From positions 8,418 through 72,417 of the forward strand of contig CAZLKN010000007.1 of assembly GCA_964560135.1 (NCBI GenBank): a stretch of DNA of 64,000 nt. Reading direction: 5' to 3'. Below, one piece after another: positions 1 to 49,064 of this stretch (position 1 is its first letter; each line of letters starts with the position of its first letter). Under the pieces are notes generated by a model. That model worked only from the letters and a program-made list of their open reading frames with translations. It did no database searches and had not been told where the DNA came from. The DNA is from an uncultured Actinomycetes bacterium (GTDB taxonomy: Bacteria > Actinomycetota > JAICYB01). The position numbers and the translations under genes are program-made.

Positions 1-1134
1 CTGGCCCGCCTGGGCGGCGGTCCCCGTGCTCTGCGTCTCAGAGCCGGCGGTGGCGTCCACGTCGTTGGAGGAGATGGCGTCGCCGGTGTGAGCGATCGAG
101 TTGGACGCCCCGTTCTGGGCCAGGAGCCGCACCCAACGTGCGTCACCCTCGACCCGGATCGTCACGTCCTGGGAGCCGGAAAGCGCGTCCCCGGTCGCCG
201 AGAGCGCATCCTGGGAGAAGAAGACATGGTTGTCGCCGGTCTGCCCGCCGGCCCCGAGGGGCGCGAGGGCATGCGGCTGCACCGGGACGGTCACTCCGTC
301 CGGTCCCGCGTATCCCATCCCGAGTCGAACGCTCTCTTCGGCCACGTACACCTCGATGTCGACGACGATGCTCATCCCTGCGGTCTGCACGAGAACATCG
401 AGGCCCGGGGGACCCCGGATGTCGTAGGAGATCAGGACCTGGCTCCCACCCCATGTGCAGTCCTCGTTCTGGACGGCCACCTGGAGGATGGAGCCGGTGT
501 CACCGGTCAATCCGTTGTCGAACACCTTGGTCTGGCAGGTCTGCTGCGGCGTGGTGCTGCTCGAGATCACCGCCTCATCGGACGGGGAAACGGGGGCCGC
601 GGGGGCAGGGCCCTGCGGCTGTTCGTCGGTCGCCTGGTCTGCTCCATCCGCGTCCTCGGCGTCTGTTGCATCGTCCGGGTGGTCCTCCCGGGCTCCGGCA
701 TGGCGGCCGCGCAGGCGCGTGGAGGCACTGTTCGCGGTTCCCGAAATCGCATCGGAGACGTCCTGGCGCCCCACTTCGACATCGGCTTCGGCGCCGTCGG
801 GGTCCGGAGGCGCGGTCGCGGTCGCGTCGGCCTCCTGCTCGGCGAGCGCCTCGTCCATCCAGGGGAACGGCCACGGCCACGGCGTGATCGCGGGGGTCGG
901 GGACGGGGTCGCGGCGACGGGGGTCGGCGTCGGCGCAGGGGTGGCAGCCGGTGTCGGTGCCGGTGTGGCCGTCGGTGCAGGAGAGGCCGTCGGTGCCGGA
1001 GAGGGCGTCACCTGGGGGGTGGCGCTCGCCGGCGGTGGAGAGGCCTCCTCCTGGGCATGGGAAACCGAGCCCGTCAGGATCAGGGCCGCCACCGCGGAGG
1101 CCACGAAGGCCAGCCGACGTATCAGATGCCTCAT
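1..1134 (-). CDS. Secreted repeat protein R0, paralog of the GDN/SGDA repeat family (start complete, C-terminus runs off the left window edge)
   Basis: Absent from the ORF track because it has no stop inside the window. Checked by hand: in the frame with plus-strand triplets 1-3, 4-6 and so on, there is no tta/cta/tca from nt 1 to 1167. ATG at 1134..1132 is preceded by AGGAG. N-terminus MRHLIRRLAFVASAVAALILTGSVSHA looks like a signal peptide and is followed by a PT-rich linker. The visible end reads QTGDNHVFFSQDALSATGDALSGSQDVTIRVEGDARWVRLLAQNGASNSIAHTGDAISSND, the same motif order as the four genes downstream. Confidence 0.7.
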   Translation of the reverse strand, partial: MRHLIRRLAFVASAVAALILTGSVSHAQEEASPPPASATPQVTPSPAPTASPAPTATPAPTPAATPAPTPTPVAATPSPTPAITPWPWPFPWMDEALAEQEADATATAPPDPDGAEADVEVGRQDVSDAISGTANSASTRLRGRHAGAREDHPDDATDAEDADGADQATDEQPQGPAPAAPVSPSDEAVISSSTTPQQTCQTKVFDNGLTGDTGSILQVAVQNEDCTWGGSQVLISYDIRGPPGLDVLVQTAGMSIVVDIEVYVAEESVRLGMGYAGPDGVTVPVQPHALAPLGAGGQTGDNHVFFSQDALSATGDALSGSQDVTIRVEGDARWVRLLAQNGASNSIAHTGDAISSNDVDATAGSETQSTGTAAQAGQ

Positions 1135-1256
1135 CCGGCTCCTGTCGTTTACCTGTGTCAAGAATCGTCACATCGGTGTCAAGAGCCCGGTACGCAGGGT
1201 ACGCCCTCGGACGGACCCCCCGCCACTCCGGATGTCCCCACCGCCCGGACAGAAAG

Positions 1257-1286
1257 GGAGAGGGCCCCCGGCTGGGGGCCCTCTCC
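1257..1286 (-). terminator. GC-rich hairpin, probable intrinsic terminator of the LPXTG gene
   Basis: 13-bp stem GGAGAGGGCCCCC/GGGGGCCCTCTCC with a 4-nt loop, 21 nt past the stop at 1308. On the minus strand it is followed by CUUUCU. Confidence 0.55.
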
Positions 1287-1307
1287 AGACTGCTGTGCAG
1301 GTCGTCC

Positions 1308-1757
1308 CTAGGACGCCAGGCTCATGCGGAGCCGGCGCAGCAGGACGCCACCGCCCGAAAGGGCGGCCATGCCGAGAGCGAAGATGTCGCCCACGTTGAC
1401 ACCCGTGACGGGCAGACGGTCCGGACCGGCAGGTCCCGGGCTCGCCGTCGGGGCAGGCGTCGCATCAGCGGCGCCGTCACCCGGACCGACCAGCTTGAGT
1501 CCCGGCAGGTCCATGATCAGGTGACCCTCGGCGTCCTCGCAGACCTCGAGCGCCGGCAGATCGAGGACATCCTCCACACAGGGACCGTGGTCGGTGTCAC
1601 CCATCTCACCGATCGCCGCAGCCTCGAGACCCCCGCCGGTGGCGCCATCCGCCACACCGTCTCCGGGAAGCCCGAGTTGGGCGAAGGCCGTCGAGCCCAT
1701 GCCGAGGAACACCCCGGTCACGGCCACGAGGACCATTGCCTTGAGCTTGTTCGTCAT
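1308..1757 (-). CDS. LPXTG cell-wall-anchored surface protein (sortase substrate), 149 aa
   Basis: Signal peptide MTNKLKAMVLVAVTGVFLGMGSTAFA. C-terminal sorting signal LPVTG, then hydrophobic GVNVGDIFALGMAALSGGGVLL, then the basic tail RRLR. Acidic body with two Cys. Confidence 0.8.
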   Translation of the reverse strand: MTNKLKAMVLVAVTGVFLGMGSTAFAQLGLPGDGVADGATGGGLEAAAIGEMGDTDHGPCVEDVLDLPALEVCEDAEGHLIMDLPGLKLVGPGDGAADATPAPTASPGPAGPDRLPVTGVNVGDIFALGMAALSGGGVLLRRLRMSLAS

Positions 1758-1831
1758 TCTGATTGCTCCTTTCCGACAACAAAACGACCTAACCAGTCGA
1801 ATCCACGTTCAGTGGACTCTAGAGGACCCGA

Positions 1832-2479
1832 CTATCCTGGTGCAATCACGTCCCAGGCGTAAAGGAACTCACGCGCCTCCTCGTCGGCGACCGCCCGGAA
1901 CGGGACGATCCGGTGCCGTGTCAGGGCTAACGCCGAACCGAGCAGGGCGGCCACGAGGCCCAGGCCTCCGGACATCGAAGCCGCACCGACCCTGCAGGCG
2001 CTGGCCGCTTCGGCGAGGAACGCGCCGAAACCCGTCAAACTCTTCTCTGAACGCTCATCTCGAGCCGTGGTCCCGGCATGGACGGCGTCCTCGACCGACC
2101 CAGAGGGCACCGGCCTGGCCGAGCGCGTCATGACCTGTTCGGGGGCGGGGGTCGCGGACATCGGGATGGTGTAGGTCGGCGCCTGCGCTGGGACCGGGTC
2201 CGCGGGGGCGGGATCCTCCGCGGTCACCGGCTCGGGCTCGGCCCCCTCCGCGACGGGCTCGGGGGCCGGCGGTGCGCCCGGCTCCTCACCTTCAGAGGGC
2301 GCAGGCGTCGTCACAGGCTCGGGGACCACCGGATTCGACGCGGGGAACTTCGTCTTTGAGTGGACCTCGTAGGGATCGGTCATCTCCGGCACGGAGGCGG
2401 ACGCGTGCCCGGCGGCCAGGAGCAGGGCGCCACCCACGAGCGCCATCGCGATGCCCACCGTCCGGACCGTGGTCCTCAC
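1832..2479 (-). CDS. Proline-rich exported protein with a C-terminal membrane anchor, unknown function
   Basis: GTG start preceded by GGGGAG. Signal peptide MRTTVRTVGIAMALVGGALLLAAGHASA, PE/PA-rich region, late hydrophobic segment GGLGLVAALLGSALAL followed by TRHR. Confidence 0.6.
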   Translation of the reverse strand: MRTTVRTVGIAMALVGGALLLAAGHASASVPEMTDPYEVHSKTKFPASNPVVPEPVTTPAPSEGEEPGAPPAPEPVAEGAEPEPVTAEDPAPADPVPAQAPTYTIPMSATPAPEQVMTRSARPVPSGSVEDAVHAGTTARDERSEKSLTGFGAFLAEAASACRVGAASMSGGLGLVAALLGSALALTRHRIVPFRAVADEEAREFLYAWDVIAPG

Positions 2480-2551
2480 ACCTGCTCCCCTTCGACACTC
2501 GGGTCCACAACAACGTCAGCGACCCGGCACGGGTATACCCGTACGGGCCGA

Positions 2552-2580
2552 ATCGTATGCCTGGCGATGGAAACGGTCAA
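2552..2580 (-). promoter_or_regulatory. Candidate sigma-70-type promoter for the 1832..2479 gene
   Basis: The minus strand reads TTGACC, 17 nt, TACGAT, about 70 nt upstream of the GTG start. Confidence 0.35.
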
Positions 2581-2695
2581 CCATCTTGCACGCTCGTTAA
2601 CCCGAACAACACAAGAGGACGAGCTTCCAGGTTGGCGGACCGGACGTTTTCTATCGCATCCGCACAGTCGCTGACAAATCCGCACCGGAAACGCG

Positions 2696-2725
2696 AAGGA
2701 GGGGCGGGTCGCCCCGCCCCTCCTT
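2696..2725 (-). terminator. GC-rich hairpin downstream of repeat gene R1
   Basis: 13-bp stem AAGGAGGGGCGGG/CCCGCCCCTCCTT with a 4-nt loop, 21 nt past the R1 stop. Weak U tract (CGCGUUUCC). Confidence 0.5.
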
Positions 2726-2746
2726 GCGTACAGCGGCCCTGGTCGC

Positions 2747-5530
2747 CTAAGAGGCGGCCATGGCGGACAGCTCGAAGCTCGATGCGGAGCCGGTCGCCGC
2801 GGGCGCCAGGCCGCTCCCCGTAGAGAGGGCCGTGGACCCGCTGGTCGCGACACCGATCACCTGCGAGCCGGCCACCGCGTCGCCCGTGTGGGCATCCGCG
2901 GCCTGGCCGGCATCCAGGATCGAGTCACCGAGCTGCGACGACGAGGCCGTGTCGCCCGTGGACTCTGCCACGGCACCGAGCTGGCCTGTCGCGAAGTTGT
3001 CGGCGTCGGCTTCGAACGTCTCGGCGATGCTCGCGTCGTCGAAGTTCTGCAGCTGTGCGAGCACATCACCGTGGACGGTGCCGATCACCTGCGAGCCGGC
3101 CACCGCGTCGCCGGAAGAGACCGACGCGTGCTGACCGAGCGCGAGGGCGTTATCGCCGATCTGGGAGGCCGTAGCCTCGCCACCGTCGGCGACAGCGAGC
3201 GCCCCGACGTTGATACCGTTCGCGGCGTTGGTCGCCGTGGCGTCGCCCGTGACCGCAACCGCGTCAACGGCTGCGTTCTGGGTCTGCACCGTGGCGTCCC
3301 CGCCTGCGGTCCCGATCACCTGGGATCCGGCCACCGCGTCACCCGAGTACGCCTCCGCGAGCTGCCCGATCACGGCGTCGTTGTCGCCGATCTGGGAAGC
3401 GGATGCGTCCTCGTCGAACGCGAGGGCTTCAGGACCCGCGGTGAGCAGGTCGACCTCGTTCACGATGACGTCGAACGCGACGTCACCAGAGACCGAGGTG
3501 CTGGTGTCCGACGAGTTCTGTCCCTGGATCGAGACGTCCCCGCCGTCCGCCACCGCACCGGTGACCTGCGAGCCGGCCACTGCATCGCCGGAGGCGAGCA
3601 GAGCCTGCTGGTCGACCGCAACGCCGTTGGAGCCGTTCTGAACGGCCGTCGCCGCCCCGAACTCACCAACAGCCAGAGGTCCGGCCAGCGCTTCCTCGAC
3701 GAGATTGATCGTCGAGAAGGTGCCCACATCGCCGGTGAAGGCGAAGTCGTCGACCGAGTCGTTCTGGTTCTGCACCAGCACGCTCGAGCCGGCGATCACG
3801 CCCGTGACCTGCGAACCCGCGACCGCATCGCCCGAGGCGAGGTCGGCCGACTGGCCCGTGGCCAGGGTGTTGTCGCCGATCTGCGAGGCCGACGCTTCAT
3901 CGAAAACACCGATGGCGAAGGGACCCGCGACCGAGTTGGCGTTCACGTTACCGGTGCCACCGAAGAGCACGAACCCCGACAGCGCCAAGGCGTTGTCGGA
4001 GGTGTTCTGGTTCTGCACCGTCACGTCGCCGCCGATGGCACCCGTGATCTGGGCGCCGGCAACCGCATCGCCGGAAGCGAGCGCGGCAACCTGATCGGCG
4101 AGGAGCTCGTTGTCTCCGACCTGCGAGGCCGTTGCAGCCTCGAAGATCGCCAGGGCGAACGGACCCGCGACGGCGCCGGTCACCACATTGGTGTCCGAGC
4201 CGAGGGCCACGTCGCCCGAGAACGCGAAGCTGTCGGTGGAGGTGTTCTGCTGCTGGATCTCGCCCGTCGCACCGACGGCTCCGGTCACCTGGGAACCCGC
4301 GACCGCATCGCCGGAGGCGAGGTCGGCCGACTGGGCGATCCCCAGGTCGTTGTCACCGTTCTGGGTCGCCGAGGCGGGCGCGAAGATCGCGTCCGCGGTG
4401 GGACCCACCTGCACGAATTCGACGAGGTTCTCGACCCCGCCGAGTCCGACCGTGCCACTGAAGGCGGTGTCGCCTTCACTCGACTGCTGGTTCTGGACAG
4501 ACAGGTGTCCGGCCTGCTCGGTGACCAGGCCCGTGATCTGCGAACCGGCGACGGCGTCGCCGGAATGCGCACGGACGTCCTGGTCGATCTCCGCCGAGTT
4601 GTCGCCGACCTGGCTCGACTGAGCCTGGTCGTCGAACGCTCGGGCGGTGGGACCGACGACAACCGCCAGGGCCAGGTTCTCGGACTCGACATCACCCGAG
4701 AAGGCCGCCGCGTCCGTCGAGGAGCTCTGCCCCTGGACGGTGGACGAACCGTTCCCGACGATGCCGGTCACGAAGGACCCGGCCACGGCGTCACCCGACG
4801 AAGCCTCGTTGGACTGCGTCAGGACGGCGTCGTTGTCCCCGATCTGGCTGGCCGAGGCCTCCGCCTGGTCGGCGAAGGCGTTCGGGCCGAGGGCCAGATC
4901 ACCGAGGTTGAATGCGTCCACTGCGCCGGAGACGGCGACCGGGTCCGTTGCCGAGTTCTGGCTCTGGACCTCGTTGTCGCCGTTCGACACGATGCCGACG
5001 ACCTGCGAACCGGCGACCGCGTCACCGGTAGCAGCCCCGACGGTCTGGGACGCATCCAGCCGGTTGTCCCCGACCTGCGACGCCTGAGCGAGCGCGTCGA
5101 CCGATGTCGCCTCCGGACCGAGCACGTACGCTCCGTCGTTGGCGGCGGTCGCGGGACCCGACTCGGCGATGGCGCCATCCGAGGTGTTCTGCACCTGGAC
5201 GGTCGCTCCGCCGCCCACCGCGCCGGCAACCGTGCTCCCGGCCGCGGCGTCGCCCGAGTGGGCGGCCGCGTCCTGCGAGACGGTACCGGCGTTGTCCCCG
5301 TTCTGCGCCGCCTGGGCCGGGGCGCCGTCGGCACCCGCAGCCGGCCCCGCATTGAACGTCAGCGCGTTCTGTGCGGTGGCCGTATCAGACGTCGCATCCG
5401 AGTCGGTGGATGTGTTCTGTCCTTGCACCACAGTGGCCTCCTGGGCGGTTGCACTACCCGCCCAAGCCAGGAAGCCGAAGCAGCCGAGCGCGGCGAACAC
5501 CAGCCACCTGGCCAGTGTCCTGCGCTCCAT
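2747..5530 (-). CDS. Secreted acidic repeat protein R1 (927 aa, 11 repeats)
   Basis: RBS GAGGAGGAAGC before the ATG. Signal peptide MERRTLARWLVFAALGCFGFLAWAGSATA. The rest is 11 units such as TVQNQNTSDNALALSGFVLFGGTGNVNANSVAGPFAIGVFDEASASQIGDNTLATGQSADLASGDAVAGSQVTGVIAGSSV. By eye the mature chain has no Lys, Cys or Trp. Confidence 0.85.
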   Translation of the reverse strand: MERRTLARWLVFAALGCFGFLAWAGSATAQEATVVQGQNTSTDSDATSDTATAQNALTFNAGPAAGADGAPAQAAQNGDNAGTVSQDAAAHSGDAAAGSTVAGAVGGGATVQVQNTSDGAIAESGPATAANDGAYVLGPEATSVDALAQASQVGDNRLDASQTVGAATGDAVAGSQVVGIVSNGDNEVQSQNSATDPVAVSGAVDAFNLGDLALGPNAFADQAEASASQIGDNDAVLTQSNEASSGDAVAGSFVTGIVGNGSSTVQGQSSSTDAAAFSGDVESENLALAVVVGPTARAFDDQAQSSQVGDNSAEIDQDVRAHSGDAVAGSQITGLVTEQAGHLSVQNQQSSEGDTAFSGTVGLGGVENLVEFVQVGPTADAIFAPASATQNGDNDLGIAQSADLASGDAVAGSQVTGAVGATGEIQQQNTSTDSFAFSGDVALGSDTNVVTGAVAGPFALAIFEAATASQVGDNELLADQVAALASGDAVAGAQITGAIGGDVTVQNQNTSDNALALSGFVLFGGTGNVNANSVAGPFAIGVFDEASASQIGDNTLATGQSADLASGDAVAGSQVTGVIAGSSVLVQNQNDSVDDFAFTGDVGTFSTINLVEEALAGPLAVGEFGAATAVQNGSNGVAVDQQALLASGDAVAGSQVTGAVADGGDVSIQGQNSSDTSTSVSGDVAFDVIVNEVDLLTAGPEALAFDEDASASQIGDNDAVIGQLAEAYSGDAVAGSQVIGTAGGDATVQTQNAAVDAVAVTGDATATNAANGINVGALAVADGGEATASQIGDNALALGQHASVSSGDAVAGSQVIGTVHGDVLAQLQNFDDASIAETFEADADNFATGQLGAVAESTGDTASSSQLGDSILDAGQAADAHTGDAVAGSQVIGVATSGSTALSTGSGLAPAATGSASSFELSAMAAS

Positions 5531-5741
5531 GCTTCCTCCTCTGTCGTCCGGACCCCACGACGGGGCCCGGATCCGTTCTTCTCCCGGTGCTGAACCGTCT
5601 CACCTCCTTCGACGCGCGCGGGGCCACGCACCGGCGTGCGGCCCCGATGGTGTTGTTACTGATGTTGTTTGCGCTCATGAAGTTGCTCAAGTGCAAACAG
5701 TAGCCCAGTGGGGTACTGCGCACAACGAACAGGAGAAAAGG

Positions 5742-5769
5742 GGAGGGGCCCCCTTGTGGGGGCCCCTCC
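5742..5769 (-). terminator. Intrinsic terminator downstream of R2
   Basis: 12-bp stem GGAGGGGCCCCC/GGGGGCCCCTCC with loop TTGT, 40 nt past the R2 stop. Followed on the minus strand by CUUUUCUCCU. Confidence 0.65.
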
Positions 5770-5809
5770 ACCAGCTCTGGCAGCCTCTCGGCCGCGACGA
5801 GCGCGTTAC

Positions 5810-8194
5810 CTAGCTGACATCACCCGTGACCTGGGCGCCGGCCACCGCATCACCCGAGTCCGAAGACAGGGTCTGCGAAGCGACGAACCCGGTGTCACCG
5901 ACGGTGCTGGCCGAAGCCGTCGCAGTAGCGGAGAACGCCTCCGCGGTCAGCGAACCCGCTGCCGCGTTGTTGGCGAACCCGTTACCGGAGAGCGCGAACG
6001 AACCGAAGTCGTTGTTGCTGACCTGGATCGTCGCCTCCGGCGCCACGACGCCGGTGACCTGGGAGCCCGCAACTGCGTCTCCCGTGCCAACCGACACGTC
6101 CTGACCGAAGTCAAGGAAGTTGTCTCCGACCTGCGAGGCCGAAGCCACGCCGTCAGCATCCGCACTCGGGCCAAGATTGGCGTCGAGCAGGTTGTCTGCG
6201 AACACATCACCCGAGAACGCGAACGTGTCCTCGGATGTGTTCGTGTTCTGCACCACAGCTTCGCCACCGGCGACAACACCGGTCACCTGGCTGCCGGCGA
6301 CGGCGTCACCGCTGTCAGCGGCGATCACCTGGTCGGCAGAGGCGTCGTTGTCACCGATCTGCGAAGCAGACGCGGTGTCGAAGAAGGAGACCGCAGTCGG
6401 GCCTGCCTCCAAGATGCCGTCGTTCACGGCATCGACCTCACCGCTGACGGAGAAGGCGAAGTCGGCGACGTTGGTGTTCTGCACCGTGACGTCACCGTCG
6501 GCCACCACTCCCGTCACCTGGCCGCCGGCAACCGCGTCGCCAGAAGCGACATCGATCACCTGCGCCAGCGCGGCGGCGTTGTCGCCCGTCTGGCTGACCG
6601 TTGCATCGCCATCAGCGATGGCGCTCGGGCCGGCCTCGACGAAGGCGAGGTTGTCGGCGAACAGCTCACCGGAGACCGCGAATGCGACCTCCGTGTTGGC
6701 CGTGTTCTGCACGACAACATCGCCCGTGGCGACGATACCGGTGACCTGACCGCCAGCGACGGCGTCACCGGTCTCGCCCGTGATCTCCTGCGCCACGGCC
6801 GCGGTGTTGTCCCCCACCTGCGAGGCGGAGGCATCACCGAAGAACGAGTCCGCAGAGGGACCCGAAAGCGCAAATCCGAAGTTCACGGTGTCGACGCTGC
6901 CGGAGACGGCGAACGGGAGCACAGCGGAGAGCTGCTGCTGAACCGTGACGTCGCCGTGGCCCACAGCACCCACCACCTGGCCGCCCGCGAGGGCGTCCCC
7001 GGTGGTGCCGTCTGCGACCTGAGCAACCGCCACGTCATTGTCTCCGATCTGCGAAACCGTCGCATCTCCGTCTTCTGCAAATGCGTTCGGGCCGGCAAGG
7101 CCGAACCCGATGTTCACTGCCTCAGCGTCACCGCTGACTGCGAAGTCACCATCACTCGCTTGCTGGTTCTGAACCGTCAGGAACCCACCCTGGTCACCCA
7201 CGGCACCGGTCACCTGGGAGCCTGCCAGCGCATCACCGGTCGACGACTGCGCATCCTGCGCAACGTCGGCGGTGTTGTCGCCGGTCTGGCTCGCCGAAGC
7301 ACTGGTACCGAAGATGCTAGCTGCGTTAGGAGCGGCAGTGGCGAAGCCGACGTTGAGAGCCAACGTGTCTCCACTGGCCGCGAACCCGTCCTCAGACGAG
7401 CCCTGGTTCTGAACGGTCGCCGATCCGCCGACGATCCCCGTCACCTGTGACGAGGCCACTGCGTCGCCCGATTCGGCCTCCGAGGACTGCGTAAGTACCG
7501 CATCGTTGTCCCCGATCTGGCCGGTCTGAGCGACGCCGTCGGTCGAAAAGGCGGTCGGTCCAGCAGCTGCGAGCCCGAGGTTCACCACTTCGGCGTCGCC
7601 GGATTCGGCGAACGCGTCGGTGGCGTTGTTTGTGTTCTGAACGACGTGCTCGCCGTCACCCACGATGCCCGTGATCTGCCCACCGGCGACAGCGTCACCG
7701 GTAGCAGCGGCACCGAACTGGGAAACAGCAGTGTCGTTCGAACCAACCTGGCTCGTCTGGGCGGTACCGTCATCGGTGGAGGCCGAAGGGCCCGTCGTGA
7801 CGTTGGCGTCGTTCACCACGTCTGCATCCCCGGACACCGCAACCGGATTGGTCGCGTTGTTCGTGTTCTGCACCGTGGCGTCATCCGCCACAACACCGGT
7901 CACCTGCGCCCCAGCCACGGGATCGCCACTCTCGGCGGTCCCGGACTGCGACACGTTCGCGGTGTTGTCGCCCAGCTGCTGGGACGAAGCCCCCGTGTCT
8001 CCCGTGGCTGCAGGGCCCCCCGCGAAATCGGCGTTGTTCTCGCCGCTCGCGGTACCCGTCTCAGCCTCGGAATCCGTCGAGGTCTGCGTCCCCTGGACCG
8101 TGGTCTCCGCGTTCGCGGCATTCGCCGCGAACAGGAAACCGAAGCAAGCGAGCGCGGAGACGAGCAGCCACCTGGCTACTGTCCTGCGCTCCAT
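5810..8194 (-). CDS. Secreted acidic repeat protein R2 (794 aa, 10 repeats)
   Basis: The track ORF 5810..8401 was trimmed to the internal ATG at 8194, which is preceded by AGGAGGAAGC. From there the N-terminus MERRTVARWLLVSALACFGFLFAANAANA aligns with the R1 signal peptide. By eye the mature chain has no Lys, Arg, Cys or Trp. Confidence 0.85.
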   Translation of the reverse strand: MERRTVARWLLVSALACFGFLFAANAANAETTVQGTQTSTDSEAETGTASGENNADFAGGPAATGDTGASSQQLGDNTANVSQSGTAESGDPVAGAQVTGVVADDATVQNTNNATNPVAVSGDADVVNDANVTTGPSASTDDGTAQTSQVGSNDTAVSQFGAAATGDAVAGGQITGIVGDGEHVVQNTNNATDAFAESGDAEVVNLGLAAAGPTAFSTDGVAQTGQIGDNDAVLTQSSEAESGDAVASSQVTGIVGGSATVQNQGSSEDGFAASGDTLALNVGFATAAPNAASIFGTSASASQTGDNTADVAQDAQSSTGDALAGSQVTGAVGDQGGFLTVQNQQASDGDFAVSGDAEAVNIGFGLAGPNAFAEDGDATVSQIGDNDVAVAQVADGTTGDALAGGQVVGAVGHGDVTVQQQLSAVLPFAVSGSVDTVNFGFALSGPSADSFFGDASASQVGDNTAAVAQEITGETGDAVAGGQVTGIVATGDVVVQNTANTEVAFAVSGELFADNLAFVEAGPSAIADGDATVSQTGDNAAALAQVIDVASGDAVAGGQVTGVVADGDVTVQNTNVADFAFSVSGEVDAVNDGILEAGPTAVSFFDTASASQIGDNDASADQVIAADSGDAVAGSQVTGVVAGGEAVVQNTNTSEDTFAFSGDVFADNLLDANLGPSADADGVASASQVGDNFLDFGQDVSVGTGDAVAGSQVTGVVAPEATIQVSNNDFGSFALSGNGFANNAAAGSLTAEAFSATATASASTVGDTGFVASQTLSSDSGDAVAGAQVTGDVS

Positions 8195-8444
8195 GTGCTT
8201 CCTCCTGTCTAGGAGTCCTACGTACGACCCGGCGTCCTTGGCGTGCCCTACGGGCCCGCTGCGGAGCACCGGTGCCCGGCCAACGGGGCCGGACTTCCCG
8301 ATCCGAGCGCGCGCAAGCGCATCACTCTTGTCGGGCAGGGAGACACAGGGCGCATCGTCCCTGTGTCCGCCTACCCGGCGCTTGCTCATCGCTCGCGTCA
8401 TCCTACCGTCTTCCGCCCATCCGTCACATCAACCGGGGCCGGCG

Positions 8445-8471
8445 CGGGGGCGGGCACGAGGCCCGCCCCCG
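8445..8471 (-). terminator. GC hairpin downstream of R3 (no clear U tract)
   Basis: 11-bp stem CGGGGGCGGGC/GCCCGCCCCCG with a 5-nt loop, 17 nt past the R3 stop. Confidence 0.4.
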
Positions 8472-8488
8472 GTAGCCGAACCAAATCC

Positions 8489-11400
8489 CTACAGCGCCTC
8501 GCCCCCGACGGCGTCTCCGACGAACCCGCCGGTCACCCAGCGGAGTCCGTCCTGGACACCCTCGGAACCGAAGCTGTCGCCCGCCGACAATGCCAGCGGA
8601 CCGAAACCCGCGACCCCGGTCGTGAAGACTCCCAGGATCGTGACCTGCTGGAACCCGGCGTCCGCGTCGCCCGAGGAGGCCGTCGTCACCTGCGTCACGC
8701 TGGCGGAGGCGTCCTCGATCATCGCGGCACTGGCGTCCTGACCACGCGGCCCCACGACACCGTCCACCAGGGCGAAAGCCGAAGCCTCACCACTGGTGGC
8801 GATGGGGGCGATGTGGTCGTTGACCTCCTGGACCGTGGCCCCGCGGACCAGCGTCTCCTGGACGCCGGCGAACGCATCGCCGGACGTCGCGGTGACGTCG
8901 ATCCGCAGTCGGAGGTCGGCGTCGCCGGCGAGCGTCGCAGACGCGTCCGCCGTGAGCGCCAGCGCGGTCGCTCCGACCACCAGGACGACCTCCGGGTCTC
9001 CGGGGTTGAACGGATCCACCCCGAGGCCGCTGAACGCCGTGGCCGGACCGGCCTCGGCGAGGGCGTCCTCGCTGATGTTGTCGTTCTGGACCGTGGAGTC
9101 CCGGGCGTCGGTGATCTGGGAGCCCGCGAAGGTGGAGCCACCCGTCGCCTCCGAGGTCTGCGCACGGTTCGCGCGCAGCGTGGAGTCGCCGATCTGCTCC
9201 GCGGTGGCCTCGAAGCCCGCCTCTGCGAAGGCGAGCGGACCGACGAACACCTGAGCGGCGTTCCCGGCCACCACAGGGCAGTCGCACCCGGCGATGGGGG
9301 CCAAAGCGTCGTTGAAGTTCTGGACCTCGGAGGTACCCGAGGCGGTCGTCGACTGCAGCCCGGCCGCGGCGTCACCGCTGGTGGCGGTGGCACGCTGGCC
9401 GAAACGCGCGTCGGTGTCGCCCACCAGGTCGGCGCTGGCGTCGCCCTCGCCGGCCGCAACGGGCCCAGCGAAGATCTCCACCTGGTTGCCACCCGGCACG
9501 AGGACGGTCGTCCCGAACTCGTCGGTGATCTCCCCGTCGCAGAGCACGGAGGCGCACGCCAGAGCACTGGTGGCGCTTCCGAAGTCGACGAGGTTGAGGT
9601 CCTGCACGATCGAGCGGTCGCGTGCGTCGGCCTCCTGGGAGGCGGCGGTGGCGTCGCCCGAGAAGGCTTCGGCCACCACGTCGAGGCGGAGGGTGTTGTC
9701 CCCCACCTGCGACGCGTTCGCGTCCGTCGCTCCGGCGAACGGACCGGCCACCCCGAAGACGAGGTTGTCGGCCAGAGCATCGCCGGACAGGGCGTCGTTG
9801 AAGAACGAGTCGTTGTCGTTCTGCACCACGGCGGAGTCCCGGGCGGTGGTCGTCTGTGACCCGCCGGTGGCGTCGCTGCTGACCGCGGTCGCCTCTCCGT
9901 TCAGCCGGGCCTCATCGTCTCCTACCTGGTCGGCCGTGGCCGGTCCGAAGATCCCGAACGCGACCGGGCCCGCGAAGAGCTGGGCCTCATTGGCCGCTCC
10001 GGCGAACCCGCTCACGACGAGGTCGAGGACCGAGGTGTTCACGTTCTGCACCGTCGACGAGTCGCGAGCGTCCGTGTCCTGGGAGCCGACGATGGCGTCC
10101 CCGGATCTGGAGGTCGCGTCGAGGTCGACGCGCACGTCCGTGTCCCCCACCTGGCCGGCGGACGCCGACTCGAAGATGGCGATGGCCGCTGGGCCGGACA
10201 CTGACGTCAGGAAGTTGTCACTCACCGAGTCCCCCGAAAGGGCCTGGTTGAGCTCGGACAGGTTGTCGTTCTGGACGACGGCCTGTCCGCGGGCATCGGT
10301 GTTCTGGACTCCCGCCCAGGCATCCCCGCTGGCGGCGTCGGCCACCGTGGCGATGTCGAACGAAGCGTCCCCCACCTGCGATGCGTCGGCATCCGCGCCG
10401 GCTCCGAAGGCCAAAGCCACCGGTCCGGCGAACGCCTCCACAACGCTCACTGCGTTTGCTGCTCCAGTTACTGCTTCGTCATCCTCACTCGCGCTGCGAT
10501 TCTGAACGGTCAACGCCCCGGCACGGTCACCCGTGGCCGCGGTCGTCTGGGAACCCGTCACGGCATCCCCGGAGGTCCCCGTCGCGTCCATGTCGAGAGC
10601 GCCTGAGGCGTTCCCGACCTGCGACGCGCCGGCGGACGAAGCTCCGTGGGCGAAGGGCCCGACGAAGGCGATGCCGAGGTTGGCCGCGAGTACCGGGCCT
10701 GACTCGGCGAGCCCGCCGGCTGCCGTGTTGTCGTTCTGGACGATCCCATCGGATGCGGTCGTGTCCTGGGTGCCGAGTGTGGCACCGCCGGACAGCCCGT
10801 CCGCCGACTGCGTGATGACCGCATCGGCGTCCCCGATCAGGCTCGCGTCGACCGGCTCCCCGGATCCGGAGATCGCGACCGGACCGGTCCCCGACGGTGC
10901 GGGGAAGGTCGGATCGGTCGAATCACCGAACACGTTGAGCACGTCGACGGCGCCGGAGAAGGCAAAGCCGCAGTCGGTCACAGCGTTCCCGCATTCATTG
11001 GTGTTCTGGACGATCGCGCCGTCCGAGGCGGTGAACTGTGATCCGGCGCGGGCTGGGCCGCTCTCTCCGATCGCGTCCTGTGAGATGTCCAGGTTCCCGT
11101 CACCGACCATCGACGCGTTCGCGCCCTCGCCTGTGGCGTAGGGCCCGTTGTGGGCGTCGACGGAATTGAACGAGGTGACGGGACCCGACTCGGCGGTGGC
11201 TCCGACGGAGCTGTTGTTGTTCTGCTCCGTGGATCCCGCCTCCGGTGTCGATGTCTGCGAGCCGGCCGAGGCCGGTCCGCTCGACGCCGACGAGTTCTGA
11301 CCGACGGTGGTGTCCGTATCGCCCACCATCGACGCGCTCGCGCCGTCCTGCGCCGCGGGGCCCGACTGAAGAGTCGTCGAGTTCCCTGCGGCCACCGGAG

Positions 11401-11548
11401 CGGACGTGGCGGTCGAGTCGGTCGACTCGTTCCCGTTCTGAACCACGGTCCCGTCCTGCGCGGAGGCCGAACCCCCGAGCCACAGAACAGAACCTGCGCA
11501 CGCGAGCGCGAGGACGGCGAGCAATCTCGCTATCGATCTCGCGTTCAT
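8489..11548 (-). CDS. Secreted acidic repeat protein R3, divergent subtype (1019 aa, about 12 repeats)
   Basis: The track ORF was trimmed to the ATG at 11548, preceded by AGGAGG. Signal peptide MNARSIARLLAVLALACAGSVLWLGGSASA. Repeats keep VQN-x-N, AGP, QVGD and SGDA-x-x-G-x-Q, but the VTG-x-VGG tail is replaced by T(D/T)ARD. Three Cys pairs are present (NECGNAVTDCG, LACASVLCDG, GCDC). Confidence 0.85.
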   Translation of the reverse strand: MNARSIARLLAVLALACAGSVLWLGGSASAQDGTVVQNGNESTDSTATSAPVAAGNSTTLQSGPAAQDGASASMVGDTDTTVGQNSSASSGPASAGSQTSTPEAGSTEQNNNSSVGATAESGPVTSFNSVDAHNGPYATGEGANASMVGDGNLDISQDAIGESGPARAGSQFTASDGAIVQNTNECGNAVTDCGFAFSGAVDVLNVFGDSTDPTFPAPSGTGPVAISGSGEPVDASLIGDADAVITQSADGLSGGATLGTQDTTASDGIVQNDNTAAGGLAESGPVLAANLGIAFVGPFAHGASSAGASQVGNASGALDMDATGTSGDAVTGSQTTAATGDRAGALTVQNRSASEDDEAVTGAANAVSVVEAFAGPVALAFGAGADADASQVGDASFDIATVADAASGDAWAGVQNTDARGQAVVQNDNLSELNQALSGDSVSDNFLTSVSGPAAIAIFESASAGQVGDTDVRVDLDATSRSGDAIVGSQDTDARDSSTVQNVNTSVLDLVVSGFAGAANEAQLFAGPVAFGIFGPATADQVGDDEARLNGEATAVSSDATGGSQTTTARDSAVVQNDNDSFFNDALSGDALADNLVFGVAGPFAGATDANASQVGDNTLRLDVVAEAFSGDATAASQEADARDRSIVQDLNLVDFGSATSALACASVLCDGEITDEFGTTVLVPGGNQVEIFAGPVAAGEGDASADLVGDTDARFGQRATATSGDAAAGLQSTTASGTSEVQNFNDALAPIAGCDCPVVAGNAAQVFVGPLAFAEAGFEATAEQIGDSTLRANRAQTSEATGGSTFAGSQITDARDSTVQNDNISEDALAEAGPATAFSGLGVDPFNPGDPEVVLVVGATALALTADASATLAGDADLRLRIDVTATSGDAFAGVQETLVRGATVQEVNDHIAPIATSGEASAFALVDGVVGPRGQDASAAMIEDASASVTQVTTASSGDADAGFQQVTILGVFTTGVAGFGPLALSAGDSFGSEGVQDGLRWVTGGFVGDAVGGEAL

Positions 11549-11822
11549 CGTGCCTCCTGATCGATCACGTGCAGCGTGCACGCGACAACAAACAACGAAC
11601 GAAGCTGGACCTTCCGGAGGTCACCTCCTCGAGGCCGAGCACCGACCGGTCCGAGGTCGGCGCCCACCACACCAGGGCTCGCTACGAACAGCTCGCAGCG
11701 GCGAGTGGTCAGCATATCAGAGGCCCGCGGTGCCGCGGTCAACCGCCACTGGGGGCCGTAGCCCCGGAAGGGCCTCAACCCGGTTCATGTTGAGGTCGAG
11801 GGTGGCCTCTGACCTGGGAAAA

Positions 11823-11852
11823 GGAGAGGGGCCCCCGTCGGGGCCCCTCTCC
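11823..11852 (-). terminator. Intrinsic terminator downstream of R4
   Basis: 13-bp stem GGAGAGGGGCCCC/GGGGCCCCTCTCC with a 4-nt loop, 22 nt past the R4 stop. Followed on the minus strand by UUUUCCC. Confidence 0.7.
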
Positions 11853-11874
11853 GAACTACAGACGACCGGATCGT

Positions 11875-14313
11875 TTACACGATCCCGATCACCGTTCCAC
11901 CGGACACCGCATCGCCCGTAATGGCGTCGGTCGCCTGCCCCGCGGTGACGGAGTTGTCACCGACCTGGGAGACGGTACCGGGGTTCGCCACCGGACCCAC
12001 CGAGCCCGCCGCAAGGTTCGTGGCGAAGGCGTCGAGGGTCAGGGCGAACGGTGCAGTGGCGTTGTTCACGTGCTGGACGGTCGCGTCCCGAGCTCCCGCC
12101 ACACCCACAACCTGGCCGCCTGCTACGGCGTCCCCGCTGTGGGCGGTGGCGATCTGGTCGAGGTCGATCGAGTTGTCCCCGATCTGGTTCGCACTGGCGG
12201 TACCCGCGCCGGAAGCGATGGCCTCGGGTCCTGCCAGCACGATCGCGTCGTTGAACGCCTCCGCGAATCCGGAGATCGCCAACGCATCGGTGCTGGTGTT
12301 GGTGAGCTGGGCCACGACGTCACGGCCGCCAACCACACCGAGTACCTGCGACCCCGCCACGGCGTCGCCGGAGACCGCGAGGGCCTCCTGCGCGACGAAC
12401 GTGTCGTTGTCGCCGAACTGGGTGGCGGTGGCTGTGCCATCGTCCGTTACTGCCGAGGGTCCGGCGAACACGTCGCCCAGGTTCACCGCGAGCGCGTCGC
12501 CCGAGAAGGCGAACGGCGCGTCGGCGTTGTTCTGGGCCTGCACGGTCACGTCGCGGGAAGCGACGATCCCGAACACCTGTCCACCGGCCACGGCGTCACC
12601 CGACTCGGCCTCCGCGAGCTGCGCGAGGCCTGCCGAGTTGTCACCGTTCTGAACTGCGGACGCCGTGCCGGTCCCCGAGGTGCTGGCGACCGGTCCGGCT
12701 TCCACGAGCCCTGCGTTAAAGGCCGTGGCGTTACCGGAGAACGCCGTGGCGTCGACCGTGTTGTTCCCGGACTGCACGACGGCATCCCGGGTGTCCACGA
12801 TCCCGACCACGGTCCCACCGGCGACAGCATCGCCGCTGGTGGCCGACGCATCCTGGACGAGCAGCGCGTCGTTGTCGCCCAGCTGGGCGGCTGAAGCGCT
12901 TCCATCCGCACCGGAGGCGGCAGAAGGCCCGGCGAGCACGAGGCCGTCGTTGAAGGCCTCCGCATCACCGGAGAAGGCGAACGGAGCATCGGCCACGTTC
13001 TGGCCCTGCACCGTCACGTCGCTGCCGCCGACCGAGCCCGTAATTTGCGAGCCCGCCACAGCGTCACCGCTCGTTGCCTCTGCCGTCTGTACCACCGTCA
13101 CGTCGTTGTCTCCGTTCTGAGTAGCTTGTGCGATCGCGCCGTCCGTGAAAGCTTCCGGACCGGCGATGACCAGCACGTCGTTCACCGAATCGGCATTACC
13201 CGAAATGGCTACCGGGTCTTCGCTGGACTGCTGGTTCTGGACCGTGAGGTGTCCTCGCTGCGCCGATACCAGACCAGTCACCTGCGAACCCGCCACGGCG
13301 TCACCCGATGTGGACACAGCTTCCTGATCAACCAGGACGTCGTTGTCGCCGACCTGGCTGGACTGGGCCGTACCCGTCACCGAGAACGCGGCCGGGCCCG
13401 CCAGTACCGCGGAGAAATTCTCCGCGAAGGCGTTCCCGGATATCGCGACCGGATCCGTGGATGCATTCTGGTTCTGGATCGTGGCATCACCGTTGCCGAC
13501 ATAGCCCGTTACCTGGCTACCGGCAACGGCGTCACCCGACGCGGCCTCGCTGGACTGCCTCAGAACGGCGTCGTTGTCGCCGACCTGAGCTGCGTTGGCC
13601 GTGCCGTCTACGGTGTCGGAGAAGGGACCGGCGGCCACGAACGCGTCGTTGAACGCGTCTGCGTCACCTGAGATACCGACCGCGTCGGTACTCGAGTTCG
13701 TGCCCTGGACGACGCCATCGCCGCCCACGATCCCTGCCACCTGGGAGCCGGCGACTGCCGACCCTGTCCCGGCGACACTCTCCTGATCAACCCTCACGCT
13801 GTTGTCCCCGACCTGGGATGCGTTTGCGTCTCCGGTGCCCGTGGCCGTGGCTTCTGGGCCAGCGGTCACATCGGCGTTGTTCGACGCCGTTGCGTCACCG
13901 GATACTGCGGTGGCACCCGTAGACGTGTTCGTCTGCTGGATGGTGCCTCCGCCCACGCTCCCGCTCACCTGTGAACCCGCCACCGCATCGCCCGACTGGG
14001 CTTCCGCTGACTGGTCCACGGTGACCGAGTTGTCTCCGATCTGGGACGACTGAGCTCCTCCGCCCGTCGCGGCAGGTCCGGCGCCGACGGTCGCGTTGTT
14101 GCTCGCGTCCGCCGTCGACGAAACCGCCGTCGAATCGGTGGAGGAGTTCGAGCCCTGAACCGTGGTGGAGTCGGCTGCCGCCGGAGAAGCTTCCGGAGAA
14201 GCTTCCGGCGTCGGCGTGGGTTCCTGCGCCGAAGCGCTACCCGCACCGATCAACAGTCCGAATCCCGCCAGCGCCCCGATAACCAGCCCGTAGGCCAGTC
14301 TGGGTCGCTGCAT
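11875..14313 (-). CDS. Secreted acidic repeat protein R4 (812 aa, 10 repeats)
   Basis: RBS GGGAGG. Signal peptide MQRPRLAYGLVIGALAGFGLLIGAGSASA, short PT/PEAS linker, then 10 units ending in SGDAVAGSQVTG-like cores. No Lys, Cys or Trp seen. Confidence 0.85.
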   Translation of the reverse strand: MQRPRLAYGLVIGALAGFGLLIGAGSASAQEPTPTPEASPEASPAAADSTTVQGSNSSTDSTAVSSTADASNNATVGAGPAATGGGAQSSQIGDNSVTVDQSAEAQSGDAVAGSQVSGSVGGGTIQQTNTSTGATAVSGDATASNNADVTAGPEATATGTGDANASQVGDNSVRVDQESVAGTGSAVAGSQVAGIVGGDGVVQGTNSSTDAVGISGDADAFNDAFVAAGPFSDTVDGTANAAQVGDNDAVLRQSSEAASGDAVAGSQVTGYVGNGDATIQNQNASTDPVAISGNAFAENFSAVLAGPAAFSVTGTAQSSQVGDNDVLVDQEAVSTSGDAVAGSQVTGLVSAQRGHLTVQNQQSSEDPVAISGNADSVNDVLVIAGPEAFTDGAIAQATQNGDNDVTVVQTAEATSGDAVAGSQITGSVGGSDVTVQGQNVADAPFAFSGDAEAFNDGLVLAGPSAASGADGSASAAQLGDNDALLVQDASATSGDAVAGGTVVGIVDTRDAVVQSGNNTVDATAFSGNATAFNAGLVEAGPVASTSGTGTASAVQNGDNSAGLAQLAEAESGDAVAGGQVFGIVASRDVTVQAQNNADAPFAFSGDALAVNLGDVFAGPSAVTDDGTATATQFGDNDTFVAQEALAVSGDAVAGSQVLGVVGGRDVVAQLTNTSTDALAISGFAEAFNDAIVLAGPEAIASGAGTASANQIGDNSIDLDQIATAHSGDAVAGGQVVGVAGARDATVQHVNNATAPFALTLDAFATNLAAGSVGPVANPGTVSQVGDNSVTAGQATDAITGDAVSGGTVIGIV

Positions 14314-14598
14314 ATTACCTCCCTAGGTTCGTCCGACGCCGGCCGAAGCCGGCGCAAGAGGCTCACCTCATGACTTCGGGCCCTCCTGGTTCACCTCCCT
14401 TTCAGGCGGTGGATCCCCCTGGCCCGGTGGGGGTCCGCCGTCATGACTGCACCCCGGCGACCGTCGCCACCGGGGACAACACGTTACTCCTGTTCAGCGC
14501 ATCCGCAAAGCGGTTGTCCAATACATCACGCTAAGACACCCAAGCAACACTATTCGTCACCGGGCCACAGGAAGAAACGGACATTCGACGTGTCCGCC

Positions 14599-21997: not shown

Positions 21998-22227
21998 GGT
22001 CTTTCCCCCCTTGCCATCCTGCCGGAGGTCACCATCTCGACCGGGACCACGAAGCACCCGCCGGGGGGGAAAGGCAGGCAACCACCTCTTGAGCGCACAC
22101 CCCTCGCGGCGCTCCGGACCCCGGAACCCGTCTCCCAGGACGGGTTCGGACTACCGGCTACGTCGCAACAGCCTTCGACATCGTTGCGTCGAAATCCTCC
22201 CCGCTACTGGCATGATCCCCAAAGACG

Positions 22228-23693: not shown

Positions 23694-23953
23694 CTGCTCC
23701 CCCTCTCGGGTGTTCGTCCGGTCACGTGGAAACCGGCGCCGGCACGTCGTCCGAGAGGGTCGTGAGCAGGCCACCCCAGATGGCCCGTCCACGGTGCGAG
23801 CGCAACCCCTCAGTCGTCGCTCCGGCTCCCGGTTCCCACCGCGTCCACCGGGCGGGTGGTACCGGTAACCTGGCAGCATCCTTCTCCGCCTGGGGACCGA
23901 AATCCTGCTTCGGTTCTGGAGGCGCTTGACTTCGCGGCGTCCGGGGTAGTCTT

Positions 23954-29371: not shown

Positions 29372-29433
29372 CGCTCCTTCCTATCGGCTCCCATGGTGCC
29401 CCGCTGAAGGGGATGAGGAAAGACGTCGCCGGA

Positions 29434-30462: not shown

Positions 30463-30720
30463 TCTTCCTCCTGTCCTCGACCGCCAGCGAGCTTACCCGC
30501 AAGAGCGCTGAGAGCCCTCCCCCCCGGGTGGCATACTGGGCTCCGCCATGGCGCCCCTCCCCCCCGCCGACCGCCCCCACGACCCGGCCCGTGCCCGGTC
30601 CGTGGGCGCCATGCACCACGGGCGGAGGACGCGCCCGGACAAGCTCCGCATCCCCGGCCGGGATCGGTGCCGCCACGACGACGAGGTGGGAGAGAGTGCC
30701 GCCGAGCGGACCGCCACATC

Positions 30721-45493: not shown

Positions 45494-45556
45494 ACTGATC
45501 CCCCTTCCGCCTCCGGGACCTCGTAGATCTCCCTGGAACGCACTCGCCTCAGACCG

Positions 45557-46279: not shown

Positions 46280-46321
46280 ACGGTGTAACAACTCCAGCTG
46301 GTCAGGACAGGGAGGCGTGCG

Positions 46322-46693: not shown

Positions 46694-46767
46694 CGCCTCG
46701 CGTGCGGTGGGGTGGGTCGACCAACAGCTCCAAGCTCACGGCCATCACCAGGAGCTTGTGAATCAGT

Positions 46768-47520: not shown

Positions 47521-47537
47521 CGTCTGGTCTCCTGCGT

Positions 47538-49032: not shown

Positions 49033-49064
49033 GGGCCCTCACCGCGACGACCGGGCCCGGGGGA

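Follow-up and report, generated by a model that had tools for sequence, protein, structure and literature searches.

Genes of the array

The 64-kb stretch of contig CAZLKN010000007.1 analyzed here (the window, 64,000 nucleotides from an uncultured Actinomycetes bacterium) carries four contiguous minus-strand genes, R4 (11875..14313), R3 (8489..11548), R2 (5810..8194), and R1 (2747..5530), which are real genes for conserved, secreted repeat proteins of an unannotated family. A fifth gene of this kind, R0, is cut by the window edge (1..1134, minus strand) and lies beyond two other genes, acc215 and acc149. An earlier reading of the sequence (the original prediction) had described five paralogous genes lying head to tail. 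Its open reading frame (ORF) coordinates and strand were correct and the head-to-tail order applies to R4, R3, R2, and R1, but R0 is divergent in sequence and separated from the other four.

The products of the four contiguous genes are precursors in which a signal peptide is followed by a series of units of about 77 residues. The R4 precursor (812 aa) has a short linker rich in proline and threonine (PT-rich) and 10 units, and the R2 precursor (794 aa) also has 10 units, its mature chain containing no Lys, Arg, Cys, or Trp. R1 (927 aa) comprises 11 units and a 29-aa C-terminal tail, STALSTGSGLAPAATGSASSFELSAMAAS, which is kept in orthologs. R3 (1019 aa) is the most divergent paralog, with 24 Arg and 7 Cys; several of its 12 units are degenerate or contain Cys-bearing insertions, and the chain ends in a C-terminal non-repeat tail.

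At every R gene, an AGGAGG-type ribosome-binding site (RBS) sits 6-9 nt 5' of the ATG, and each of the four complete genes is followed on the minus strand by its own GC-rich hairpin: after R4 at 11823-11852 (with a T tract), after R3 at 8446-8470, after R2 at 5742-5769, and after R1 at 2696-2725. The hairpins were read directly, and a terminator scan recovered two of the four, among them the one behind R2. The RBSs, the cleavable-looking signal peptides, and the hairpins listed in the original prediction were all confirmed. The reading frame of R2 remains open upstream to 8401; its start was set at 8194 because the RBS and signal peptide are located there.

The signal peptides look cleavable (AxA) and, although the N-termini contain RR or RK (MERRTLARW...), no model of a twin-arginine translocation (Tat) signal matched the R proteins at E<=1 in NCBIfam or Pfam scans. 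We infer export through the Sec pathway, since the h-region is strongly hydrophobic, the c-region is free of basic residues, and no Tat model matched. Inspection of the C-termini of R1-R4 revealed no LPXTG motif with hydrophobic helix and basic tail, and no SLH or other wall-binding or anchoring module was found in these proteins by Pfam, NCBIfam, or inspection, as had been predicted. A match of the PT-linker of R0 to an anammox S-layer model of NCBIfam is meaningless (10.9 bits, where the cut-off is 1400 bits).

A second Shine-Dalgarno-like element, GGAGGTGA, occurs ~60-90 nt 5' of the starts of R1, R3, and R4 (near 5592-5607, 11613-11630, and 14380-14400, minus strand) and is absent at R2; it could belong to a short leader ORF or a 5'-untranslated element. 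An Rfam scan assigned no family to these elements and no regulatory RNA to the window, and an alignment of the four R upstream regions showed nothing conserved except terminator and RBS.

The repeat unit and its composition

A profile of the repeat was obtained by splitting the chains with a regular expression and aligning 31 units with MAFFT, which yielded 77 positions and the consensus xxTVQNQNxSxxxxAxSGDAxAxNxxxxxAGPxAxxxxGxAxASQxGDNxxxxxQxAxAxSGDAVAGSQVTGxVxxx. The repeat period varies between 73 and 83 aa, in line with the ~78 aa first estimated, and a hidden Markov model (HMM) counted 11, 10, 12, and 10 units in R1, R2, R3, and R4, respectively, the same numbers as had been counted by eye. 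At the protein level, units share about 35-65% identity, and no 231-bp periodicity was detected in the DNA by Tandem Repeats Finder. The repeats are therefore old and have been kept by selection on the protein rather than produced by recent slippage. When the two halves of the unit were compared by hhalign, a weak match of the pattern A-x-SGDA-x-A was obtained (E 0.0096, probability 4%), which is suggestive of an origin of the unit by internal duplication.

The amino-acid composition of these proteins is unusual in its basic residues. Lys is absent from all four precursors, including their signal peptides. Given the Lys content of 23 other proteins of the window (2.4%), the probability of this is ~1e-36, and it is still ~1e-17 if the 1.1% Lys of three secreted neighbors is taken instead. 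Arg makes up 0.4-2.4% of R1-R4 versus a background of 8.4%, and all three Arg of R2 fall inside its signal peptide. Mature R1, R2, and R4 contain neither Cys nor Trp. These counts agree with those of the original prediction, as does its expectation that the proteins would escape trypsin-based detection, which is right for Lys and largely right for Arg: trypsin has no cleavage site in mature R2 and would release no peptide from it.

The description "hyper-acidic", in contrast, needs to be divided. The net charge is indeed large and negative, but Asp and Glu together account for 10.8-12.9% of R1-R4, which equals the genome background (12.6%). The R proteins are therefore strongly anionic because Lys, Arg, and His are nearly absent, and not because acidic residues are enriched. 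A salt-in halophilic lifestyle was considered as the source of the charge and rejected, as the housekeeping proteins of the window have ordinary isoelectric points and the Asp plus Glu content of the R proteins matches the background.

Relatives and conservation of the paralogs

No known family accommodates these proteins, as the original prediction had supposed. R0-R4 had no Pfam match at E<=1, R1-R4 had no NCBIfam match, and no PDB chain was matched at E<=10 by phmmer or by the unit profile. A search of 5.8 billion proteins with R4 returned 97 relatives, all from metagenomes or metagenome-assembled genomes (MAGs), which are unnamed or called "hypothetical protein" and whose sole organism labels are Actinomycetota MAGs. 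Samples that contain relatives include JGI 3300036851 and 3300036859, SRR12687281, SRR22742743, SRR28401833, ERZ25039516, and GCA_040905525.1. The family is very rare: an exhaustive HMMER scan with the unit profile found only 212 proteins at E<=1e-3 among 1.84 billion cluster representatives, all of them metagenomic or encoded in MAGs of uncultured Actinomycetota. When 185,579 species-representative genomes were scanned for the motif, a single locus emerged, in the MAG of an uncultured Actinomycetes bacterium, and no cultured host. A literature search on lysine-free acidic secreted repeat proteins and on actinobacterial solenoid amyloids produced nothing on the R family.

The compositional bias extends to the relatives: Lys accounts for only 258 of 75,588 residues (0.34%) across the 97 proteins, 21 of which are Lys-free, so that Lys exclusion is a trait of the family and not of one genome. 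In 679 non-redundant units, the polar positions N8 (85%), N24 (84%), Q45 (89%), N49 (80%), Q55 (91%), and Q69 (91%) are strongly conserved, and Gly is invariant at G18, G31, G47, G62, G67, and G72.

Gene order was compared with loci related to the window (L003-L014). In L005, a gene for an S8 peptidase is followed by four genes, g1-g4, that correspond best to R4, R3, R2, and R1, respectively, with identities of 58% (g1/R4), 52% (g2/R3), 51% (third gene/R2), and 54% (g4/R1) between orthologs and 35-50% to the non-orthologous paralogs. The four paralogs are therefore older than the divergence of these two organisms and have remained distinct from one another ever since. Multi-copy arrays are found in the window, L003, L004, L005, L007, L008, and L012, which answers the question, raised with the original prediction, of whether such tandem arrays recur.

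The chain ends are specific to the paralogs as well. R1-type proteins share a C-terminal tail of the form LSTGSGL...F-E-x-S-x-A-A-S, R3-type proteins share a longer tail containing Trp and Gly, and R2- and R4-type proteins end flush with a unit. R2 and R4 of the window themselves stop flush with the unit end (profile positions 72-76), and 19 of the 97 relatives end 0-1 residue past these positions. At the other end, the first unit begins directly behind the signal peptide in 40 of the 97, and the mature N-terminus begins at unit position 1-3. The claim that the chains simply end inside a repeat was thus mistaken, given that R2 and R4 end at a unit boundary and R1 and R3 in tails of 29 aa and of greater length.

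Long spurious ORFs are common on both strands of high-GC DNA, and the G+C content of the 64-kb window is 66-73%; the R genes might accordingly be chance ORFs or decaying pseudogenes. This explanation is effectively refuted by conservation, given the position-specific pattern over 679 units, the 97 homologs with the same architecture, and the orthologs with 51-58% identity in kept order. In addition, the GC content at third codon positions (GC3) of R1-R4 in the called frames is 0.78-0.85 (R4, 0.79), and every gene has an RBS, a signal peptide, and a terminator.

A distant subfamily (relatives P0071-P0097) consists of ~550-aa proteins whose six units are longer (~88-90 aa) and which share the C-terminal motif ...F[VI]G[LQ]N..., and several of its members are free of both Lys and Arg. 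One protein of this type, in L010, adjoins genes for HemolysinCabind and CLIPPER repeat proteins and for cell-envelope polysaccharides.

Predicted structure

A model of three units was predicted by AlphaFold2 (AF2) after 44 three-unit fragments of the window and of its relatives had been aligned in register. It was all beta, with a mean predicted local distance difference test score (pLDDT) of 93.7 and a predicted template-modeling score (pTM) of 0.80. Full-length R2, modeled with 40 relatives, gave a pLDDT of 92.5 and a pTM of 0.88; residues 1-29 (the signal peptide) formed a low-confidence helix, and from residue 32 the strands continued unbroken to residue 793, neither end being capped by a helix or a domain. 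Each unit comprises seven short strands connected by two- or three-residue turns at the invariant Gly positions. The 679-unit profile shows a strict alternation of inward and outward strand positions, with Ala, Ser, Val, and the conserved Asn and Gln pointing inward and Asp, Glu, and Thr pointing outward. According to these models, the R proteins very probably have a secreted beta-solenoid fold, as the original prediction had guessed, and the R chain is strongly predicted to be one continuous, uncapped beta-solenoid. The surface of each rod would carry about 90-125 negative charges and essentially no positive ones.

The number of rungs per unit was approached by a mean-field direct-coupling analysis of 504 two-unit windows. 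The analysis was dominated by i, i+77 pairs, which were discounted because gaps and the relatedness of the repeats confound them. Secondary couplings between positions 34-43 residues apart (P32-S68, S68-P109, A43-Q82/N83, and V81-Q122) fit a stacking offset of ~38.5 residues and, together with the strand pattern, suggest that each 77-aa unit forms two rungs of ~38-39 residues. In this arrangement, VQNQN and ASQxGDN would be stacked strands, and AGP and AVAGSQ stacked turns. If the canonical 4.8 Å per rung is assumed, rods of 10-12 units would be about 10-12 nm long.

A Foldseek search of the PDB with the three-unit model gave a sole match at E<=1e-3, the functional amyloid subunit FapC (9u4u, E 6.5e-7). 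The next neighbors were a second FapC entry, left-handed beta-helices, tapirins, antifreeze or ice-binding helices, and the CsgA fibril (E 0.087), followed by SufD, LpxD, pectate lyases, and bactofilin, all of which are beta-solenoids or beta-helices. A search of a viral structure library with Foldseek returned nothing meaningful.

The presence of several ice-binding or antifreeze beta-helices among the weak matches (E 0.07-1) raises the question of whether the R proteins bind ice. This seems very improbable, since these matches are non-significant with template-modeling scores (TM-scores) <0.1, Pfam scans of the R proteins found no DUF3494 or other ice-binding protein domain, and the outward positions are acidic instead of forming the flat Thr/Ala arrays typical of ice-binding faces.

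The turns of the model offer another role. The Gly-Asp turns (SGD 17-19, GDN 47-49, and SGD 61-63) could form stacked Ca2+ or Mg2+ sites, as in the beta-rolls of repeats-in-toxin (RTX) proteins, so that the chain would fold only outside the cell and would serve in cation sequestration, mineral nucleation, or mineral adhesion. This would fit the uniformly anionic surface and the conservation of D63 (94%) and D48 (73%) in the 679 units, each beside an invariant Gly in a turn, and two of the weak Foldseek neighbors, 4phb (a polysaccharide-lyase-like beta-helix, gadolinium derivative) and the AlgE6 A-module, point in the same direction. However, Pfam showed no match to HemolysinCabind or a known Ca-binding repeat, and we regard cation-dependent folding with a role in metal or mineral binding as improbable. 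It is compatible with the stacking of rods into fibers proposed below and does not exclude it.

Neighboring genes and the replication origin

Downstream of R1, the partial gene R0 (1..1134) encodes a signal peptide and a PT-rich linker, next a WPWPFPW motif and an N-terminal region of its own (~200 aa), and finally only a small number of family units. It shares 24-28% identity with R1-R4 and 42% with the R0 of L004, and it contains one Lys. In the full-length R0-like genes of L004 and L011, about five units follow the N-terminal region.

Between R1 and R0 lie acc215 (1832..2479, minus strand) and acc149 (1308..1757, minus strand). The former encodes 215 aa, in which a signal peptide and a Pro-rich region are followed by a single C-terminal membrane helix and a conserved tail that closes with ...LYAWDVIAPG; it is not an R paralog and had no Pfam match, and its homologs hold the same position in L004, L011, L012, L013, and L014. 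The latter encodes a secreted protein of 149 aa that carries the sortase motif LPVTG, followed by a hydrophobic helix and the tail RRLR, and is probably wall-anchored because these three features together mark a sortase substrate. A terminator hairpin follows acc149 at 1257-1286 (minus strand, terminator scan). The acc149 family, a rare one, comprises 77 clusters under the JGI name "LPXTG-motif cell wall-anchored protein", is without a Pfam domain, and co-occurs with R proteins on five contigs. Wherever both occur (four loci: the window, L004, L011, and L012), an R-family gene lies directly downstream of acc149, namely R0 in the first three and a gene for a 670-aa R protein in L012. An acc215-like gene (~200 aa) and an LPXTG gene (~130-150 aa) form a conserved pair just upstream of ssb-rpsF-rpsR-rplI-dnaB in L004 and L011-L014, and L013 and L014 hold a second, truncated copy.

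On the other side of the array, directly upstream of R4, a gene at 14599..16806 (minus strand) encodes a secreted subtilisin-like peptidase (Peptidase_S8, E 2.7e-47) with a fervidolysin-type N-terminal prodomain, the S8 domain, long PT linkers, and two C-terminal modules of ~100 aa that resemble CE2_N and are carbohydrate-binding-like. It has the same position in L005. We considered the S8 peptidase, acc215, and acc149 as dedicated assembly genes and rejected this, because L013 and L014 keep the trio beside ssb-rpsF (in the order membrane protein, S8, acc215-like, acc149, ssb, rpsF) with no R unit there. The three are therefore backbone neighbors, and the sole remaining link between the R genes and their neighbors is the acc149-then-R adjacency, which is suggestive.

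The region 43485-58086 of the window is the chromosomal replication-origin region of an actinobacterial chromosome. It includes ParB (43485-44348, minus strand) and YidC (47538-48428, minus strand), and dnaA (49323-50789), followed by dnaN, recF, gyrB, and gyrA, and the cumulative GC-skew minimum of the window lies near 48-50 kb. The R genes are 35-49 kb from dnaA, and this origin-proximal location implies a high gene dosage. The GyrB of the window has <=79% identity to any of the 5.8 billion proteins, its named relatives being MAGs labeled Acidimicrobiales, Acidimicrobiia, or Actinomycetota. This places the host among the uncultured Actinomycetota, where it is probably Acidimicrobiia-like.

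The array is flanked by two conserved origin-region blocks. One consists of ino1, PadR, Ig-like (Big_13) surface proteins, and a polytopic membrane protein, and the other, as read in relatives, of ssb, rpsF, rpsR, rplI, and dnaB. The surface proteins are two large secreted paralogs of 935 and 533 aa (19274-22081 and 22278-23879, minus strand) with Big_13 Ig-like domains and repeated IDDGDGF[IL]NA segments, and their homologs in L006 and L012 occupy the same place beside PadR/ino1. A T2SSE-family secretion ATPase adjoins the CCA-adding enzyme both in the window (region 28298-29380, minus strand) and in L006. MurJ comes after a DUF6049 protein (region 30447-34958), the usual actinobacterial arrangement near the origin. 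Two tRNA genes (61358-61431 and 62714-62786) are the sole Rfam matches in the window. The DnaB of related genomes contains an intein (Intein_splicing, LAGLIDADG) in L004 (20191-21966) and L011 (18409-20402).

Proposed assembly

The reading that we favor, with a probability of roughly 0.45, is that the R proteins are Sec-exported, open-ended polyanionic rods that stack end to end into fibers or a surface matrix. After export and cleavage of the signal peptide, the whole chain would fold into a stiff, polyanionic solenoid rod. Head-to-tail stacking is proposed because the two ends of R2 and R4 are open and in register, one being a unit start and the other a unit end. The last rung of one molecule would then continue onto the first rung of the next just as units do within the chain, by beta-sheet augmentation of the kind known for curli and Fap subunits. 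Open-ended solenoids without caps polymerize in this way, and imperfect terminal rungs or blocking domains prevent it (PMC10192328). The uniform negative charge would leave no opportunity for lateral salt bridges or clumping, Ca2+ or Mg2+ may be bound as counter-ions, possibly at the stacked Gly-Asp turns, and the exclusion of Lys, Arg, and His would make the fibers insensitive to trypsin-like proteases.

The same fold evidence would also suit rods that stay monomeric and individually serve the wall zone as a polyanionic brush, as spacers, or as a store of cations, much as teichoic or teichuronic acids do, with assembly blocked by electrostatic repulsion. The extreme net charge and near absence of basic residues would be expected of such a brush, the family shows no conserved nucleator or chaperone system, and the non-repeat C-terminal tails of R1 and R3 could block stacking. 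Nevertheless, soluble solenoids are normally capped (PMC10192328), whereas R2, R4, and the 19 of 97 relatives noted above are open-ended in register; single rods would have to be held in place by proteins that possess no wall-binding or anchoring module; and four paralogs in fixed order are more easily understood as parts of a hetero-assembly. For these reasons, we consider the monomeric brush unlikely, if by no means negligible.

Within the end-to-end stacking model, the retention of four distinct paralogs in order suggests a division of labor. R2 and R4, which are open at both ends, would act as extenders of the fiber, R1 and R3, with their C-terminal tails, may be terminators or connectors, and R0, with its N-terminal domain, is a possible starter or anchor near the wall-anchored acc149 product. 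Fiber formation by the R proteins is itself a tentative proposal to which we would give slightly less than an even chance, and the roles of the paralogs and their anchoring are held with lower confidence still.

Several points weigh against stacking into fibers. First, rods that each carry a charge of -90 to -125 would repel one another and resist stacking in the absence of screening cations. Second, the structural support has clear bounds: (i) high AF2 confidence on a periodic sequence is no proof of polymerization; (ii) rung length, handedness, and cross-section are derived from DSSP strings and a noisy coupling analysis; (iii) the TM-scores of all Foldseek neighbors are only 0.05-0.18, so that there is no global superposition and the FapC match reflects local 3Di similarity; and (iv) the full-length R2 model had no significant Foldseek match, with FapC on top at E 1.3. 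Third, the genomic context is of limited help, as the linkage of the R genes to S8, acc215, and acc149 may be positional only, distant homologs stand alone in unrelated metabolic contexts, and no conserved dedicated secretion or nucleation machinery surrounds family members in the loci examined. Finally, the system is known from gene sequences and predictions, and the organism is uncultured.

A bolder version of the proposal would make R1-R4 and R0 a hetero-polymeric, amyloid-like surface filament of a novel type in a Gram-positive cell, exported by plain Sec without chaperone or channel. R0 would nucleate the filament close to the wall, beside the LPXTG protein, R2 and R4 would elongate it, R1 and R3 would terminate it, and the whole, being devoid of Lys and nearly so of Arg, would form a divalent-cation-loaded polyanion in place of wall polymers of the teichoic-acid type. 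We would not expect this complete scheme to be right, and present it as speculation.

Some consequences may be of wider interest. The near-complete exclusion of basic residues over ~75,000 family residues is a clear selective signature without an established explanation. For environmental proteomics, it means that secreted proteins that look abundant and are encoded close to the origin are invisible to trypsin workflows. Furthermore, the chains are long, free of linkers, and modeled with unusually high confidence, and those of R1, R2, and R4 have no Lys, Cys, or Trp; protein materials could make good use of them as scaffolds that are chemically addressable, a purpose for which curli homologs have already been mined, as one report indicates (PMC13579223).

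Comparison with known systems

Among proteins of the PDB, FapC, a biofilm amyloid of Pseudomonas, is the nearest structural neighbor, though still a distant one. In FapC, each imperfect repeat forms one cross-beta layer of five short strands that is shaped by conserved hydrogen bonds among Asn and Gln; the core is packed with small residues, and the layers stack at 4.8 Å (PMC12392863). The R unit, as modeled, is built along similar lines, with short strands, Gly turns, and inward-facing conserved Asn and Gln. The same topology, a Greek-key cross-beta layer, is not claimed, however, as the matches of FapC to the R model had TM-scores of 0.08-0.17 (0.08-0.10, with a root-mean-square deviation of 27 Å, in the three-unit search), and the R unit has no sequence similarity to FapC (PDB, including 9u4u and 9nqd, and Pfam). 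FapC has 3 layers per monomer separated by long linkers, whereas an R protein is predicted to have about 20-24 contiguous layers without linkers, and the Lys of FapC that pairs with Asp across layers has no counterpart in the Lys-free R proteins. Export differs as well: Fap depends on a fapABCDEF operon with the outer-membrane channel FapF of diderm bacteria, while the R proteins have a Sec signal peptide in an actinobacterial host, and neither fapABCDEF nor FapF was found in the window or any related locus.

Curli are likewise secreted, open-ended beta-solenoids made from imperfect repeats with Asn/Gln ladders, as the R proteins are predicted to be, and in the curli family chains have 5 to >15 repeats, with length scaling with repeat number (PMC10192328). 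A motif of the R unit, Q-x-G-D-N-x-A-x3-Q, echoes Q-x-G-x-G-N-x-A-x3-Q of CsgA, and R0 could have the part of CsgB, the homologous minor subunit that nucleates curli. Homology to curli was nevertheless rejected, since hhalign of the unit profile with E. coli CsgA gave a probability of 0.75% and E 0.075 over 12 columns. Consistently, Curlin_rpt had no match at E<=1 in R0-R4, and the CsgA chains of the PDB were not matched by the profile. The curli repeat is 19-23 aa long with two strands per rung, compared with the 77-aa R unit and its ~38 aa per rung, and Pfam scans of 33 further predicted proteins across the window found no csgBAC/csgDEFG genes and no CsgG. The host, an actinobacterium, makes use of LPXTG anchoring.

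Two other groups share more general features. RTX beta-rolls are also secreted, acidic, Gly/Asp-rich repeats with Asp beside Gly in turns, but the R proteins have no GGxGxDxUx nonapeptide and no match to PF00353 (HemolysinCabind), their period and strand pattern are different, and their signal is an N-terminal Sec peptide in place of a C-terminal signal for a type I secretion system. Chaplins are secreted amyloid-type surface proteins of Actinomycetota, some of them sortase-anchored. Unlike the very large, hydrophilic, and polyanionic R proteins, however, they are small (a domain of about 55 aa), hydrophobic, and Cys-containing, and no chaplin domain was matched by Pfam in the R proteins.

Taken together, the fold class (a repeat-built beta-solenoid with Asn/Gln ladders) and the functional kind (a secreted matrix or fiber protein) are already known. 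The novel points are the sequence family, a 77-aa unit of probably two rungs, long chains that have no linkers, and plain Sec export in an actinobacterium, along with the conserved array of four paralogs and the near-total exclusion of basic residues. If the proposed stacking is correct, the building of amyloid-like fibers would not be tied to the specialized secretion systems of diderm bacteria, as uncultured actinobacteria would achieve it with Sec alone, and the R proteins would join curli and Fap as a third family of bacterial matrix proteins that are built from repeats as open-ended beta-solenoids, without being related to them in sequence.

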